Position numbers and translations under genes: made by a program. A DNA stretch of 20,000 nucleotides from an uncultured virus (IMG/VR IMGVR_UViG_3300042453_004632). Taxonomy: Duplodnaviria > Heunggongvirae > Uroviricota > Caudoviricetes. Each line of letters starts with the position of its first letter. The first letter of the stretch is position 1. The stretch lies in IMG/VR virus record IMGVR_UViG_3300042453_004632; one strand, written 5' to 3'. Under the pieces are notes generated by a model that was given only the letters and a program-made list of their open reading frames with translations, ran no database searches and was not told where the DNA came from. Below are positions 3,955 through 19,243 of this stretch, piece after piece.

Positions 3955-4396
3955 ATCGCCGTCCGTGGAATATAAACTTTTTCGGAGAGCAGCCACCCCA
4001 GAAAGGTCATATTTCGTCATATCGTTCCAAAGGCCCGAGGGATATTCCATGTACGATTTCGTTAAGATTTCGTGCACGGCATTCGGCGACATCATGTCGC
4101 AGAACAAACTTGAATATTTTGCCTTGGGAGACCCTCATCTTGAATGCAATTCAGGAAATGAATTCTCCACAGACGACTCATTCTGGAGAACGAAGTTTGA
4201 CGACACGTTCGTGCCGGGAAAGACGCTCGCCGACCTTGTGATCGGCAGCATCGGAGAAGGAGAAAAGAACGAGATTTCATTCTGCTTCTACTCCCCCAGG
4301 AGCGAGACGGAGAAGTTTTTTGACCCCGAAGGCGACTACAGCCATCCGGAACCCGATCCCGAGTGGTACTGCGAGGGAAGGTACGTGGAAGAGTGA
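3947..4396 (+). CDS. Hypothetical acidic protein
   Basis: GGAGG RBS upstream of ATG 3947, which overlaps the previous stop; GTGA coupling with the next gene. Confidence 0.7.
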   Translation: MTESPSVEYKLFRRAATPERSYFVISFQRPEGYSMYDFVKISCTAFGDIMSQNKLEYFALGDPHLECNSGNEFSTDDSFWRTKFDDTFVPGKTLADLVIGSIGEGEKNEISFCFYSPRSETEKFFDPEGDYSHPEPDPEWYCEGRYVEE

Positions 4397-5040
4397 AAGA
4401 CTTTTTCTGCAGGGCAGTCAAGATAACTGACAAGGAAGACAACATCTTCTTCTGGTCCGACATGCACCTCGGTCAGGAGTGCAAGAGCTGGGATGAACCT
4501 CTCTTTGTGAAGCGCGGCTTCGGATCGCTTGAGGAGCACGATTCCGCCCTTGTCAAAAGATGGAATGAAAAGATTTCCCACGAGTCGGTGGTTTTCAACC
4601 TCGGCGACATGCTTTTCGGTTACGACGGCGAACGCAGGCTCATCAACTACTTTGAGATGCTAAATTTCAGGACGATGTATCTTCTCTTCGGAAACCACAC
4701 CGCCGGAACCAAACAAGTCTTTGAAAAACTTGAGGGAAATGTCTACGAGGTCAACTCGGAGAAGCGGGTCGTGTTCTGCCCTAATTACATGGAAGCCCAC
4801 ATAAACGGCTATCTTTGTGTGTTGAGCCACTACGCAATCGCGTCATTCAACGGTCAGGGAAAGGGAGCGTACATGATCCACGGTCACTCCCATGGAAATC
4901 TATATGGCTCCGAGATGGGGAAGGTCCTCTACAAAGCGAGAGTGATAGATGTGGGCGTGGAGAACTGTCCGGTGCCTCAATCGTTCGGGGAGATAAGAAG
5001 AAGATTCAAGGAAAACCCCGTATCATTTGATCATCACTGA
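4393..5040 (+). CDS. Calcineurin-like metallophosphoesterase (second, distinct subfamily)
   Basis: Motifs SDMHLG, LGDM, GNH, SHY, HGHSHG, DVGVE; GTG start overlaps the upstream TGA. Confidence 0.9.
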   Translation: MKDFFCRAVKITDKEDNIFFWSDMHLGQECKSWDEPLFVKRGFGSLEEHDSALVKRWNEKISHESVVFNLGDMLFGYDGERRLINYFEMLNFRTMYLLFGNHTAGTKQVFEKLEGNVYEVNSEKRVVFCPNYMEAHINGYLCVLSHYAIASFNGQGKGAYMIHGHSHGNLYGSEMGKVLYKARVIDVGVENCPVPQSFGEIRRRFKENPVSFDHH

Positions 5041-5254: not shown

Positions 5255-5521
5255 ATGAGCAAGAAAAAAACAACAGAAGAAACGCCCAAGCAGGAACCCG
5301 CCGAGGTCCACGAAGAGGACAGGAGCACGATCAAATCCCTCCTTTTCGCCCAAGTGGAAAGACCCAGAAATCTCACGGATGTAAGGATAGTGAATGTATT
5401 TGAAGACAGATACAGAATAAATCTCTGGGTGAAGATTGAGGAAGACGGTCTAGAAAAGAAAAAGATCGCATCCAGTTATTTCGTCCGCTACGACGGAGAA
5501 AGCTTGGCAATCAGGGCGTGA
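5255..5521 (+). CDS. Hypothetical protein (RYRINLW...SYFV motif)
   Basis: 88-aa ORF that fills the region; TATATA 5 nt before ATG. Confidence 0.7.
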   Translation: MSKKKTTEETPKQEPAEVHEEDRSTIKSLLFAQVERPRNLTDVRIVNVFEDRYRINLWVKIEEDGLEKKKIASSYFVRYDGESLAIRA

Positions 5522-5540
5522 AAAATTTTCTGATGCCCCC

Positions 5541-5569
5541 TTTGCAGTCCTGCCGAATCGGACTACAAT
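5541..5569 (+). promoter_or_regulatory. Sigma70-type promoter for the tRNA gene
   Basis: TTTGCA/TTGCAG (5541-5547), 16-17 nt, TACAAT (5564-5569), 17 nt upstream of the tRNA 5' end. Confidence 0.6.
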
Positions 5570-5586
5570 GAATTTGGATCAATGAA

Positions 5587-5856
5587 GGGTCATTAGCTCA
5601 ATGGTAGAGCAACCGGCTTCAAATAGGAGTGCCTAAGAGGAAACTTTTAGAGTAGAACCGCTCAAATTCGGCGAACGCTTTGAAATGCCAACGCCGAGCC
5701 AAGCCCGCAAGGGAAGGTGTAGAGACTTGACGGGCGGCACCTAAAGCCGAAAGGTCATGGTGAAGGCAAAGTCCAAAGCCACAGTCGGAAGACGTAGTGA
5801 AAACTATAGTGACTTTGTTAACCGGTTGGTTGTAGGTTCGACCCCTACATGACCCA
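5587..5856 (+). tRNA. trnK: tRNA-Lys(UUU), intron-containing (exons 5587-5619 and 5818-5856); CCA not encoded
   Basis: Acceptor GGGTCAT/ATGACCC plus discriminator A; D arm GCTC-AATGGTA-GAGC; anticodon stem ACCGG/CCGGT with spliced loop CT-TTT-AA; T arm GTAGG-TTCGACC-CCTAC. Confidence 0.93.
5620..5817 (+). ncRNA. Group I self-splicing intron (IC3, Azoarcus tRNA-Ile intron-like), 198 nt, no internal ORF
   Basis: P1 GCUU^C/GGAGU with U.G at the splice site; P2 with GAAA loop; P3 CCGCTC/GGGCGG; core TCAAATTCGGCGAA...CAACGCCGAGCCAAG...GAAGGTGTAGAGACT; P7 GAGACTT/AAGTCC; P8 CCTAA..ATGG receptor-like motif; terminal omega-G at 5817. Confidence 0.93.
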
Positions 5857-5865
5857 CTAAATATC

Positions 5866-6045
5866 ATGAGTTTCAAAAAACTTGAACAATTGGCGAGGGA
5901 AAGAGGATACACAGTCGCCCGCAAGGGACGAGTGGTGTTCTGGAAGTGCAACTCTAATCCGGGCCACAATGGAACTTGCTACTCTCTAGAAGACACCGCC
6001 AGCGAGATAAACGTCCACTATGAATACAAACTCCTCCACGCTTGA
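5866..6045 (+). CDS. 59-aa hypothetical protein missing from the ORF track; paralog of 19297..19494
   Basis: Manual translation MSFKKLEQLARERGYTVARKGRVVFWKCNSNPGHNGTCYSLEDTASEINVHYEYKLLHA*, which aligns by eye with the 19297 ORF. Confidence 0.65.
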   Translation: MSFKKLEQLARERGYTVARKGRVVFWKCNSNPGHNGTCYSLEDTASEINVHYEYKLLHA

Positions 6046-6349
6046 ACAGAAGCTATACGACATCATGAATGAAAAACTCCAAAAGATGGAGGAAGAATTC
6101 ATGGTGATGGGCACGGAGAGTTCTAGGCTGAACCGATTGAACTATAAGTGGATGAACTATAAGTGGAACGAATATCTGGAGTCCGTGCCCGGAATAAAAA
6201 GAATGAGCAAGATGATGAGCCTGATTCTGGAGAAGGGCGAGCACGAAATCCGAATCAAAGACCCGCTTGACTTCTCGGGAAATCAAGGTTCAATTTCAAT
6301 GCACTTGGAGACTGCCGTGAAAATCGCAACCCTAGGATATTTGCCATGA
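6020..6349 (+). CDS. Hypothetical protein, family A (WxxYL...DP...ExAxKxxxLGxxP C-terminus)
   Basis: KWNEYLESVPG, IKDPL, ETAVKIATLGYLP; ATGA coupling with the next gene. Confidence 0.75.
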   Translation: MNTNSSTLEQKLYDIMNEKLQKMEEEFMVMGTESSRLNRLNYKWMNYKWNEYLESVPGIKRMSKMMSLILEKGEHEIRIKDPLDFSGNQGSISMHLETAVKIATLGYLP

Positions 6350-12597: not shown

Positions 12598-12710
12598 GGA
12601 GATTATCTACGGAACCACGCCCCCATGCCCGAAGGACATAGGAAAAAATCTTCTCGAAAAACACCCGGCCCGGATACCATGCAGTGGTCGGCAACCCAAG
12701 GAGAAAAACC

Positions 12711-13754
12711 ATGCAAGCCATCAGTCGTGCGGATTTGTACTTCAAAGAAGGCTCAAGCGACAAGGTCTACCACGCGACCGTGGAGCCCAAGGACGATAAG
12801 TTCGTCGTCAACTTCAGCTACGGACGAAGGGGATCAACCCTCGTCGCCGGGACAAAGACCAACCAGCCCGTCACCCTCGCGGAAGCGACGAAGGCATTTG
12901 AAAGGCTCGTGAACAGCAAGTTGGTCAAGGGATACCGCCGGATGGAATCCGGAGACGAAACCATCCCCCAGGCCGAACCGGCAGACACTCCGACCGAAAT
13001 CCAGTGCGTCCTGCTCAACCCCGTTGACGAGGACGAGGCCATGATCCTCATCAACGACAAGCAATGGACCGCCCAACCGAAGTTCGACGGCGTCAGGTTC
13101 ATGCTCGGAAGGAAGAACGGGAAGGTCTACGCCCTTAACCGCAAGGGCAAGCAGTCCAGTGTGCCAAACCGGATTCAAGAGGACGCCCCCGAACCGGACT
13201 TCCTCTTGGACGGCGAACTGGTGGGCGAGAACTTTTACGCCTTTGATATTCTGGAACTGGACGGAAACTGCTTGAGGAAAATGCCGCTAGAGGAAAGATC
13301 CAAGATTCTTGAGGAGATCGTACCCGATTCGGAAAACATCAAGTTCGTCCCTCTAGCCACCGGAAAACAGAAGAAGGAACTCCACGAATCGCTCAAGGAA
13401 CAGAACGCGGAAGGAATCGTCTTCAAGAAACTCAAGTCCCCGTACAACACGGGACGCCCCGCCAGCGGCGGCAACTACCTCAAGTTCAAGTTCTACAGCA
13501 CAGCCTCCTGCCGCGTCTCCAAGGTCAACCAGAAAAGAAGCGTGAGCCTCGTCATGGAGTGCGGCACCCAAGTGGGGAACGTGACCATCCCGGCCAACCA
13601 CGAAATCCCAAGCAAGGACGATGTCGTGGAAGTCAGATACCTCTACGCCTACAAGGGAGGCTCACTTTACCAGCCAACCTACCTCGGCAAAAGGAGCGAC
13701 GTTGACCCCGACCACGCCCACACGCTCAAGTTCAAGAACGAGGAAGAAGAATGA
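12711..13754 (+). CDS. WGR-domain / ATP-dependent DNA ligase fusion
   Basis: N-terminal WGR (SSDKVY, YGRRG, KLVKGY); ligase motifs I QPKFDGVR, III LLDGEL, IIIa FYAFDIL, IV EGIVFK, V LKFK; short OB domain (VVEVRY...P.YLG.RSD); AAGGAG RBS before ATG 12711. Confidence 0.9.
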   Translation: MQAISRADLYFKEGSSDKVYHATVEPKDDKFVVNFSYGRRGSTLVAGTKTNQPVTLAEATKAFERLVNSKLVKGYRRMESGDETIPQAEPADTPTEIQCVLLNPVDEDEAMILINDKQWTAQPKFDGVRFMLGRKNGKVYALNRKGKQSSVPNRIQEDAPEPDFLLDGELVGENFYAFDILELDGNCLRKMPLEERSKILEEIVPDSENIKFVPLATGKQKKELHESLKEQNAEGIVFKKLKSPYNTGRPASGGNYLKFKFYSTASCRVSKVNQKRSVSLVMECGTQVGNVTIPANHEIPSKDDVVEVRYLYAYKGGSLYQPTYLGKRSDVDPDHAHTLKFKNEEEE

Positions 13755-18337: not shown

Positions 18338-19243
18338 ATGAGAAAAGCATTCACACTGATAGAAGTCCTCGTCGTCATCTTCATAATCTCGTCCATCATC
18401 GGACTACTGCTCCCCGCCGTCAACGCCGCAAGAGAAGCAGCACGCTCCACCGCCTGCCAAAATAACCTCAAACAAATAGGAATCGCCTTCCAACTCCACG
18501 AACAAAGCATGGGACACCTCCCCAGCGCAGGATGGGGATCCGCATGGACAGGAGACGCCGACAGAGGAACAGGCTCCGGACAACCCGGAAGCTGGATATT
18601 CTCCCTGCTGCCGTACATGGATATGCAAAACCTCCACAATATCCCCGCCGACGGAAACCCCCTCGAAATCACAACCCAACAAAAGGAAAAAGCCGCACAA
18701 GCAGCCGAAATCCCAATACCCATCCTCATATGCCCCTCCAGAAGGTCCGAAACCACCGGACCACTCAAACCACAAACACTCTGGAACATGAACCACGCCG
18801 AAAAAGTCTCCAAAACAGACTACGCCGTCAACGCCGGAGACAACGAAGTAGCTTGGGGACAAGGACCAGAACCAGATTCCCAACAATTCGAGGACATGAC
18901 CCTCTCCACCGGAATCGCACACCAAGCAAGCCAGATCAAATTCAGCCACCTCACAGACGGACTATCGAACACCTACATGGCCGGAGAAAAAAGAATCTCG
19001 GCCCCAGAACACGACGAACAAGGAGCACTCTTCGGCTCAGACTCCAATACCGCGAGATGGACCCAAGAACCACCAGCACAAGACTCGGGAATCATAGGAA
19101 ACAACTTCGGCTCCAAACACACCAACTACTGCATCATGCTCGTCTGCGACGGCTCCGTAAGACAAATATCATACGAAATAGACCCCACCACACACAGCAG
19201 ACTCGGAAACCGAAAGGACGGGCAAATAGCGATAATGCCATGA
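18338..19243 (+). CDS. DUF1559 (SBP_bac_10) prepilin-type N-terminal cleavage/methylation protein with H-X9-DG motif
   Basis: AFTLIEVLVVI...LLLPAVNAAREAARSTACQNNLKQIGIA, SW..SLLPYMD, CPSRR, DGLSNTYM.GEK, FGSKH-X9-DGSVR...LGNRKDG: the complete planctomycete DUF1559 signature. Confidence 0.95.
   Translation: MRKAFTLIEVLVVIFIISSIIGLLLPAVNAAREAARSTACQNNLKQIGIAFQLHEQSMGHLPSAGWGSAWTGDADRGTGSGQPGSWIFSLLPYMDMQNLHNIPADGNPLEITTQQKEKAAQAAEIPIPILICPSRRSETTGPLKPQTLWNMNHAEKVSKTDYAVNAGDNEVAWGQGPEPDSQQFEDMTLSTGIAHQASQIKFSHLTDGLSNTYMAGEKRISAPEHDEQGALFGSDSNTARWTQEPPAQDSGIIGNNFGSKHTNYCIMLVCDGSVRQISYEIDPTTHSRLGNRKDGQIAIMP

Follow-up and report, generated by a model that had tools for sequence, protein, structure and literature searches.

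The 20,000-nucleotide (nt) stretch of DNA analyzed here, from the uncultured virus record IMGVR_UViG_3300042453_004632 and referred to below as the window, carries a tRNA-Lys(UUU) gene that is split between U34 and U35 by a group I intron. We read this intron as a near-neutral selfish element without a homing endonuclease gene, belonging to the family of the tRNA-Leu(UAA) introns, and give that reading a probability of about 0.85. The split gene lies at positions 5587-5856 of the window on the + strand, as do all its parts described below, and corresponds to a precursor of 270 nt that becomes a canonical cloverleaf once the insert is removed. The 5′ exon (5587-5619) starts with the 7 nt of one acceptor strand, which are followed by the D-arm, strand 5612-5616 of the anticodon stem and the loop bases C32, U33, and U34; the intron, 198 nt long, takes up 5620-5817; and the 3′ exon (5818-5856) supplies U35, U36, A37, and A38, the stem strand 5822-5826, a 5-nt variable loop, the T-arm, the other acceptor strand and the discriminator A5856, with no CCA encoded at the 3′ end of the gene. 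An earlier note, made from the letters of the window, had proposed this split gene, and its coordinates proved correct to the base. It had also expected standard tRNA callers to miss the gene, as indeed they do: by default, ARAGORN detected no tRNA anywhere in the window, while with introns allowed it reported a single cloverleaf that spans 5587-5857 and contains an insert of 198 nt, the sole tRNA gene of the 20 kilobases (kb). The reported tRNA has 73 bases, a perfect acceptor stem of 7 base pairs (bp) and canonical D, anticodon, and T arms, but is printed as tRNA-SeC(tca), because the tool always assumes an insertion at 37/38. The gene is thus invisible to default tRNA finders and miscalled as a UGA reader by an intron-aware one. 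Split tRNA genes that are missed or mislabelled in this way mean that phage tRNA inventories, and the codon-usage and recoding arguments built on them, can be wrong.

The splice sites follow from the stems and from the pairing rule of group I introns. The stems fix the insert at 198 nt, which leaves eight possible cut positions within the loop, and only one of the eight has U at the −1 position and G at the omega position, namely the cut after U5619 combined with that after G5817. Joining U5619 to U5818 gives the 7-nt loop C-U-UUU-A-A with the anticodon UUU; the earlier note had derived the same loop and the discriminator A, and the U/G rule and the match of A5856 to the discriminator of Escherichia coli lysT bear it out. 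The intron ends on G5817, which in the 41-intron alignment described below shares its column with the terminal G of every member and is the sole G that fits the 198-nt length. At the 5′ splice site, U5619 forms a wobble pair with G5627, flanked by U5618-A5628, C5617-G5629, and C5620-G5626, so that the P1 hairpin spans 5616-5630, with an optional G5616.U5630 pair and the internal guide at 5624-5630. This register was taken from the GAG guide of the family: in all 60 unique relatives with the same insertion point, the 5′ exon ends in C-U-U and the guide reads G-A-G. The Rfam alignment uses another register, with U5619 paired to G5629, but we preferred that of the family because the Rfam one uses up bases of the covariation-supported P2; the wobble falls at U5619 in both. 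After the first step, a P10 of 3 bp is possible between guide bases 5624-5626 and 3′ exon bases 5818-5820.

Contigs of four other lake-water metagenome runs, all of them DNA, were aligned to this region at 80% likeness, and the window DNA is indeed present in lake-water runs: one contig of another run carries the 3′ part of the intron and the downstream gene unchanged. One contig from another lake-water run has an uninterrupted Lys-type gene that joins 5610 to 5818 with nine differing letters between, and four contigs from two other runs (one and three, respectively) join 5617 to 5816 and read as tRNAs of the Asn(GUU) type; all of these genes are without an insert and come from other organisms. 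By their alignment, these uninterrupted genes show that both exon halves are tRNA halves. Together with the label that ARAGORN prints when introns are allowed, they also provide what can be said for a different mature anticodon: the four Asn-type tRNAs match both halves with the 5617-5816 joint, so that cuts one base earlier would give GUU (Asn), and the 37/38 placement would give UCA, a UGA reader. Either outcome seems to us extremely improbable. For GUU the intron would have to end on U5816, and for UCA on A5821; applied to the related Lys introns, these readings leave C, A, or U at the end, whereas the UUU reading leaves G in all of them, and the family-wide P1 register puts the wobble pair at U5619. 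Moreover, lysT shares the discriminator A of this gene and E. coli asnT has G instead, which argues against Asn, and translation with table 11 gives long uninterrupted open reading frames (ORFs) in the window, so a use of UGA as a sense codon is not indicated. The earlier note had named a GUU junction as the result that would speak against its proposal; such a cut would end the intron on U5816, and the U/G rule gives UUU.

The intron has the complete fold of a group I ribozyme. A search with the Rfam covariance model RF00028, which the earlier note had suggested, returned one match, at 5610-5797, that covers the model in full (positions 1-253 of 253) and scores 58 bits (E 1.3e-12) where the gathering score is 50; this was the sole Rfam match within the window. 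The pre-tRNA folds at −93.2 kcal/mol (z = −4.17), none of 200 shuffles being as good, and the exon stems form across the intron. To follow the helices through a family, we collected relatives by an exact 21-nt match covering the joining segment J6/7 and the 5′ strand of P7, scanning IMG/VR and a one-genome-per-species set of GTDB, and aligned with MAFFT the window intron and 40 other unique introns of at most 215 nt inserted at the same position. RNAalifold predicted 53 pairs for these 41 introns, 35 of them with compensatory changes. We swapped one spurious invariant helix for the P7 pseudoknot and recounted the resulting 54 pairs in 12 helices: 97.2% of the cells were paired, against 25-42% in slid controls, and 35 pairs had changed on both sides. 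The covariation score was 0.478, against at most 0.106 in the slid controls, and none of 500 shuffles reached the observed score. Covarying pairs occurred in P2 (10 of 10), P3 (4 of 6), P5 (2 of 2), P6 (3 of 4), P8 with its extension (4 of 6) and the P9 hairpins (6 of 6), while P4 was mostly invariant.

In the window, 46 of the 53 pairs checked were standard; the other seven belong to P6 and P9, two helices in which the row has gaps or is misaligned and which do pair when read by eye. P2 (5630-5639/5644-5654), a hairpin with a GAAA loop, and P3 (5658-5663/5732-5737), in which 100% of the family cells are paired, are formed throughout. The P4-P5-P6 domain (5668-5713) consists of P4 (5668-5673/5692-5697), P5 (5677-5678/5687-5688) and P6 (5704-5706/5711-5713, with a GCAA loop) and has no P5abc. 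It is followed by the stretch 5714-5737, which holds J6/7, the 5′ strand of P7 (G5722 and 5724-5727) and the 3′ strand of P3 (5732-5737) and which includes the exact 21-nt core; the J6/7-P7 part was invariant in all four of the first relatives. P8 (5738-5741/5759-5762) with its GAAA-capped extension (5746-5748/5753-5755) is a family helix formed in the window, and the 3′ strand of P7 (5770-5774) makes the pseudoknot with 5722-5727. The end of the intron (5775-5816), covered by family helices 10-12, holds P9.0 (5775-5778/5813-5816), P9 (5780-5782/5809-5811) and two P9 hairpins at 5784-5786/5791-5793 (GGAA loop) and 5795-5798/5803-5806 (GAAA loop). Five loops are thus GNRA tetraloops, in L2, L6, L8, and both P9 hairpins. 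The Rfam score, the covariation and the helices of the window agree with the earlier description of P1-P9, a U.G pair at 5619 and an omega-G at 5817.

The intron carries no credible ORF, again as the earlier note had it. The sole + strand ORF of at least 20 amino acids (aa) within it measures 31 aa and runs out into the exon, and the 116-aa minus-strand ORF that overlaps the intron (5619-5969, −) had no Pfam match at E <= 5. At the same threshold, Pfam gave no homing-endonuclease domain in the intron or in the flanking ORFs 5255-5521 and 5866-6045, and ORF 6020-6349 had chance-level Pfam matches alone. These data confirm that the group I intron at the 34/35 position of tRNA-Lys(UUU) is real, complete in structure and free of an ORF. 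Its mode of action would follow the established group I pathway: the 270-nt precursor would be transcribed, its exons pairing as acceptor, D, T, and anticodon stems and its intron folding into P1-P9; free guanosine would attack after U5619, held in its wobble with G5627 of the internal guide; and the guide would then hold the 3′ exon by the 3-bp P10 while omega-G5817 entered the G-site in P7 and the exons were ligated into the C-U-UUU-A-A loop. Most likely, therefore, the intron would self-splice by the standard two-step pathway and yield a normal tRNA, presumably charged with lysine. The identity elements of tRNA-Lys are the anticodon UUU and the discriminator A73, and the ORFs of the window contain 146 AAA and 231 AAG lysine codons.

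Judging from its sequence, the intron is of the tRNA-Leu(UAA) 34/35 type and not of the Azoarcus type. The bacterial, plastid, and phage tRNA-Leu(UAA) introns (class Leu.3Ug) share with it the insertion after U34, preceded by C-U-U, the GAG guide, the set of helices without P5abc and the exact 21-nt core, and those of phages are 75-79% identical to it at the DNA level; the differences are the host, Lys(UUU), and the P10 guide, which reads U-A-G and fits U-U-A instead of U-U-U, which fits A-A-A. The Azoarcus intron is about 200 nt long and has tetraloop contacts. The intron in the pre-tRNA-Ile(CAU) of Azoarcus sp. BH72 (Ile2.5Ug), to which the earlier note had likened this one, is likewise small, ORF-less and placed in the anticodon loop, with a short P1 and GNRA loops, but it interrupts a CAU tRNA behind position 36, whereas the intron of the window follows position 34 of a UUU tRNA, and introns of CAU tRNAs after position 36 form a separate class among the bacterial loci listed. 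Its nearest introns among the matches listed are a viral tRNA-Lys(UUU) intron (our locus L102, 79% over 194 nt) and the phage tRNA-Leu(UAA) introns L078 and L055 (79% over 186 nt), so the comparison with Azoarcus does not hold. Other Lys(UUU) introns interrupt the same tRNA and, in viruses, at the same site, the closest among the matches listed being 79-81% identical. L102 is homologous over the whole gene, with 30/33 identical positions in the 5′ exon, 160/200 in the intron and 31/40 in the 3′ exon. The length of 198 nt is ordinary for the Lys introns of the family, which range from 183 to 213 nt, and relatives of 183-185 nt occur in the same tRNA, so that the earlier epithet "very compact" does not fit. 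The subgroup label IC3 is taken from Williams (2020), whose text applies it to the classical classes.

The 188-kb viral contig that carries L102 also encodes a 49%-identical relative of a phosphoesterase of the window. Between about 102.9 and 148.3 kb it contains at least four tRNAs split by group I introns, namely Gln-UUG (206 nt), Lys-UUU (200 nt), Leu-UAA (200 nt) and Met-CAU (222 nt), and uninterrupted Thr-UGU and Arg-UCU genes adjoin them. No uninterrupted Lys or Asn tRNA was found in 80 kb of this contig.

The exact 21-nt core occurs in at least 120 viral loci of IMG/VR and at least 120 bacterial loci of GTDB. We assigned hosts in 120 viral and 120 bacterial loci among the matches listed, placing the splice sites by the U/G rule on a cloverleaf anchored with ARAGORN and recording as k how many bases of the loop precede the intron; the counts include identical copies and are not prevalences. 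At least 70 of the viral loci have tRNA hosts. Leu-UAA (k = 3) hosts the intron in 44 viral and 18 bacterial loci, and Lys-UUU with k = 3 in six viral loci (seven by a stricter rule; L102, L108, L023, L048, L093/L096, and L112) and one bacterial locus (L197, at 34/35). Arg-UCU (seven with k = 3 and three with k = 2), Thr-UGU (two, k = 3) and Ser-UGA (one, k = 3) are viral hosts, whereas CAU with k = 2 (28) and Arg-CCU with k = 5 (15) are bacterial; CAU with k = 5 accounts for three viral and 20 bacterial loci. No tRNA was found at 42 viral and 18 bacterial loci, splice sites could not be assigned in a tRNA at five and one, and other calls make up seven and 16. The viral hosts are therefore mostly U34 tRNAs cut at 34/35, while the bacterial ones are mostly Arg-CCU and CAU tRNAs, the latter with the cut behind the second or fifth loop base; the bacterial classes are the classical ones plus a few Lys-UUU. 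Three bacterial Lys-UUU loci (k = 4; L155, L170, and L192, in metagenome-assembled genomes of Gemmatimonadaceae, Alphaproteobacteria, and Sphingomonas) have the intron at U35/U36 rather than at 34/35.

The guide of these introns appears to track the exon that it has to hold. With the guide position fixed, P10 averages 2.37 bp with the intron's own 3′ exon (n = 60) and 0.71 bp with the exons of other classes (n = 300), a comparison in which the guide position was itself chosen for maximal pairing with own exons and so favours own over other. Particularly, the seven Lys(UUU) introns including that of the window form 3-4 bp with their own exon, on average 3.14, but none (0 bp) with that of Leu, and the Leu introns 2.28 bp with their own and 0.13 bp with the Lys exon; the Lys guide also suits the Arg-UCU 3′ exon, with a mean of 2.57 bp. 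This tracking of the 3′ exon is circumstantial support for a transposition of the intron between tRNA genes. The lineage would have moved among phage tRNA genes that share C32-U33-U34, namely those of Leu-UAA, Lys-UUU, Arg-UCU, Thr-UGU, and Ser-UGA, with the guide re-tuned to each 3′ exon.

A tree of the intron cores, from which the guide and the terminal bases were omitted, groups the intron of the window with L102 and with L020, a locus whose tRNA has the anticodon UCA (support 91/93). The four short Lys introns (183-185 nt), which have no P8 extension, fall into a clade of their own (98/99) that neighbours a Thr-UGU intron, and the bacterial Lys intron adjoins an Arg-UCU intron. The Lys label thus requires three to four changes on the tree. 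Nevertheless, the approximately unbiased (AU) test did not reject a single Lys clade, either with all seven introns (p = 0.156) or with the six viral ones (p = 0.377), and independent origins of the Lys introns are accordingly not established. L020 (with L263, on a 98-kb IMG/VR contig at about 50.9-51.2 kb) is a close relative of the intron of the window, and its tRNA, with the spliced anticodon UCA given by the U/G rule, may be a UGA reader.

A bolder account would have one lineage colonize many phage U34 tRNAs (Leu-UAA, Lys-UUU, Arg-UCU, Thr-UGU, and Ser-UGA, as well as Gln-UUG in one 188-kb phage) at the same bond by reverse splicing into C32-U33-U34 loops and re-tuning of P10, with the split form perhaps kept as a reservoir of tRNA proof against nucleases or endonucleases. 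Such a reservoir is suggested by the fact that the U34 tRNAs occupied are also those attacked by anticodon nucleases, but we consider this account unlikely.

Several points weigh against our reading of a spliceable selfish intron in a phage tRNA-Lys, besides the choice of guide position and the fit of the Lys guide to the Arg-UCU exon. Outside the loop, the gene matches E. coli K-12 lysT at 51 positions, valT at 50 and asnT at 44; valT is almost as near as lysT, so the isotype comes mainly from the anticodon and A73, and the alignment of the Asn(GUU)-type contigs means that the 3′ half by itself cannot separate Lys from Asn. Because the family was gathered by an exact core match, P7 and the 21-nt core are without covariation evidence, and the support for P7 (five pairs, 99.5% paired in the family) is its complementarity. 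The outer stems P9.0 and P9 of the window were set by eye, since MAFFT had misaligned that stretch, and P5 has just 2 bp. The earlier note had proposed a survey of intron-bearing and intron-less alleles in related phages; intron-bearing relatives were found, but no intron-less allele of the same phage among the lake contigs, the phosphoesterase relatives or the relatives of ORF 6020-6349. The 20 kb contain no capsid or terminase gene, so that "phage" is likely but not proven. Finally, none of the listed sequencing runs that contain positions 5300-6200 of the window is an RNA run.

This last point, along with the minimal P5, an Rfam score just 8 bits over the cut-off and the lack of a homing endonuclease that could maintain the intron, would also suit an intron that no longer splices, in which case the gene would be a dead tRNA-Lys pseudogene carried in a phage. 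We hold this to be very unlikely, given that the conserved helices, the U.G pair, the omega-G, the P7 core and all five GNRA loops are intact and that in the exons all 7 bp of the acceptor stem are retained and the D and T arms are canonical. In L102, moreover, the intron has diverged by 20% and still keeps all the pairings as well as a 4-bp P10 of its own, which indicates purifying selection on splicing.

The earlier note had suggested that the intron could protect this tRNA or time its supply. In such a scenario the phage would keep the intron for its benefit, either as an uncleavable precursor or delayed supply of tRNA-Lys(UUU) in the face of PrrC-like nucleases or as a broken DNA target of endonucleases that cut tRNA genes. 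U33 and U34 are buried in P1 of the precursor, and the loop targeted by nucleases of the PrrC type would be absent until splicing; nucleases are known to attack tRNA-Lys(UUU), and tRNAs of phages have been proposed as counter-defences, according to a passage of one report (PMC10264068); the split tRNA-Lys is the sole tRNA gene of the window; and, the three CAU calls apart, the phage host tRNAs of the family all carry U34 among the loci listed. That bias is fully accounted for by the need for a U.G pair at a splice site that follows C-U-U, however. The spliced loop is identical to that of E. coli lysT in 7/7 bases, so lasting protection would not be gained, and we found no evidence for protection or timing: the idea is without support because the spliced loop is ordinary. 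Furthermore, no nuclease or defence gene was identified among the genes of the window, and the same core occurs in capsid genes and many bacterial tRNAs, as a selfish element would. A benefit to the phage is on these grounds quite improbable, and the intron is most likely a near-neutral passenger and not a regulator.

The earlier note had stated that the classic bacterial tRNA classes with group I introns do not include Lys(UUU). This is true of the four classical classes (Leu.3Ug, Arg.5Ug, fMet.2Ug, and Ile2.5Ug), but Williams (2020; bioRxiv 10.1101/2020.01.27.920355) raised their number to 21, naming the classes in a table only, in a paper whose running text contains neither the word "Lys" nor the word "phage". 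With Lys(UUU) hosts recurring at 6-7 of the 120 viral and 4 of the 120 bacterial loci listed, the suggestion that an ORF-less intron in a Lys tRNA is unusual does not stand. For phages, a passage of Hausner et al. (2014; PMC3984707) notes that every phage intron known at that time lay in a protein-coding gene, although phages have many tRNA genes, and our literature search found no later description of group I introns in phage tRNA genes. A paper of 2026 on gut jumbo phages (PMC12880540) reports, in a passage, that protein genes contain many introns about 206 nt long, 37 of 76 being supported by metatranscriptome reads. Two possible precedents were set aside. The Lak megaphage tRNA introns, called "enigmatic" by Devoto et al. 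(2019; PMC6784885), measure about 93 nt in Table S6 of that study, which is not the size of a group I intron, and the "group I introns" of 22-49 nt in cyanobacterial tRNA-Lys(CUU), as given in a passage of PMC5733544, are too short for ribozymes. What the window contributes is one clean example, ORF-less and in Lys(UUU), of a large family of introns in phage tRNAs, and a single locus opens no new mechanism.

The plausible genes of the window all lie on the + strand, are mostly small, and few of them could be named with PHROG, Pfam, or NCBIfam. These searches identified two metallophosphoesterases (1734-2324 and 4363-5040), a protein with WGR and ATP-dependent ligase matches (12684-13754) that also matches DNA-ligase, RNA-ligase, and capping-enzyme families of Pfam, a DUF6915 protein, an immunoglobulin (Ig)-like protein and a prepilin-type/DUF1559 protein of 301 aa (18338-19243) with an N-terminal methylation motif (SBP_bac_10, E 7.6e-41). 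The DUF1559 family, which we take to be typical of Planctomycetota and hugely expanded in them, hints at a host in that phylum, and the gene may be an auxiliary gene of the phage. From the PHROG matches, the gene layout and the viral-contig relatives of one gene, the window is likely phage DNA. That gene is the phosphoesterase at 4363-5040, a mosaic gene found at 17 loci in all, with 12 viral relatives of 47-91% identity on contigs of 17-459 kb; none of the 17 loci has a tRNA within 3 kb or another gene of the window alongside, and there is no synteny. For ORF 6020-6349 no viral relative was found, and none of 50,697 phage records was matched when the entire window was searched with megablast. 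The metallophosphoesterases and the ligase, which lie on either side of the tRNA-Lys, might be likened to the end-healing and sealing activities of tRNA repair. Upstream of the tRNA, a sigma-70-like site at 5541-5569 (+) has 9/12 matches and a 17-nt spacer and ends 18 nt before the gene, although the two promoter-like sites found are not above the chance expectation of 0.9 ± 1.0.

The intron core was also found by a distant BLAST of phage records, which returned two huge uncultured phages with interrupted tRNA-Leu(UAA) genes (inserts of 205 and 700 nt) and two phage capsid genes. The 700-nt insert (L002; LR756511.1, 408861-410280) lies at 34/35 of the tRNA in a 595-kb uncultured phage, and a homing-endonuclease ORF could fit in it; its score with RF00028 was below the cut-off. 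The capsid-gene introns (Pelagibacter phage HTVC120P and uncultured phage Deep1-GF2-KM23-C739) share the 21-nt core with the intron of the window and are 77-82% identical to it over about 75 nt, but they interrupt protein-coding genes, have a shorter P8 and sit in a different exon context. Both capsid genes (L003, KT997847.1, 21730-22603, from the uncultured deep-sea phage; and L004, MH598807.1, 19253-20130, from HTVC120P) are annotated as two "capsid protein" coding sequences each, and the gap between the two contains a small group I intron with the same core, which in L003 scores 78 bits with RF00028.

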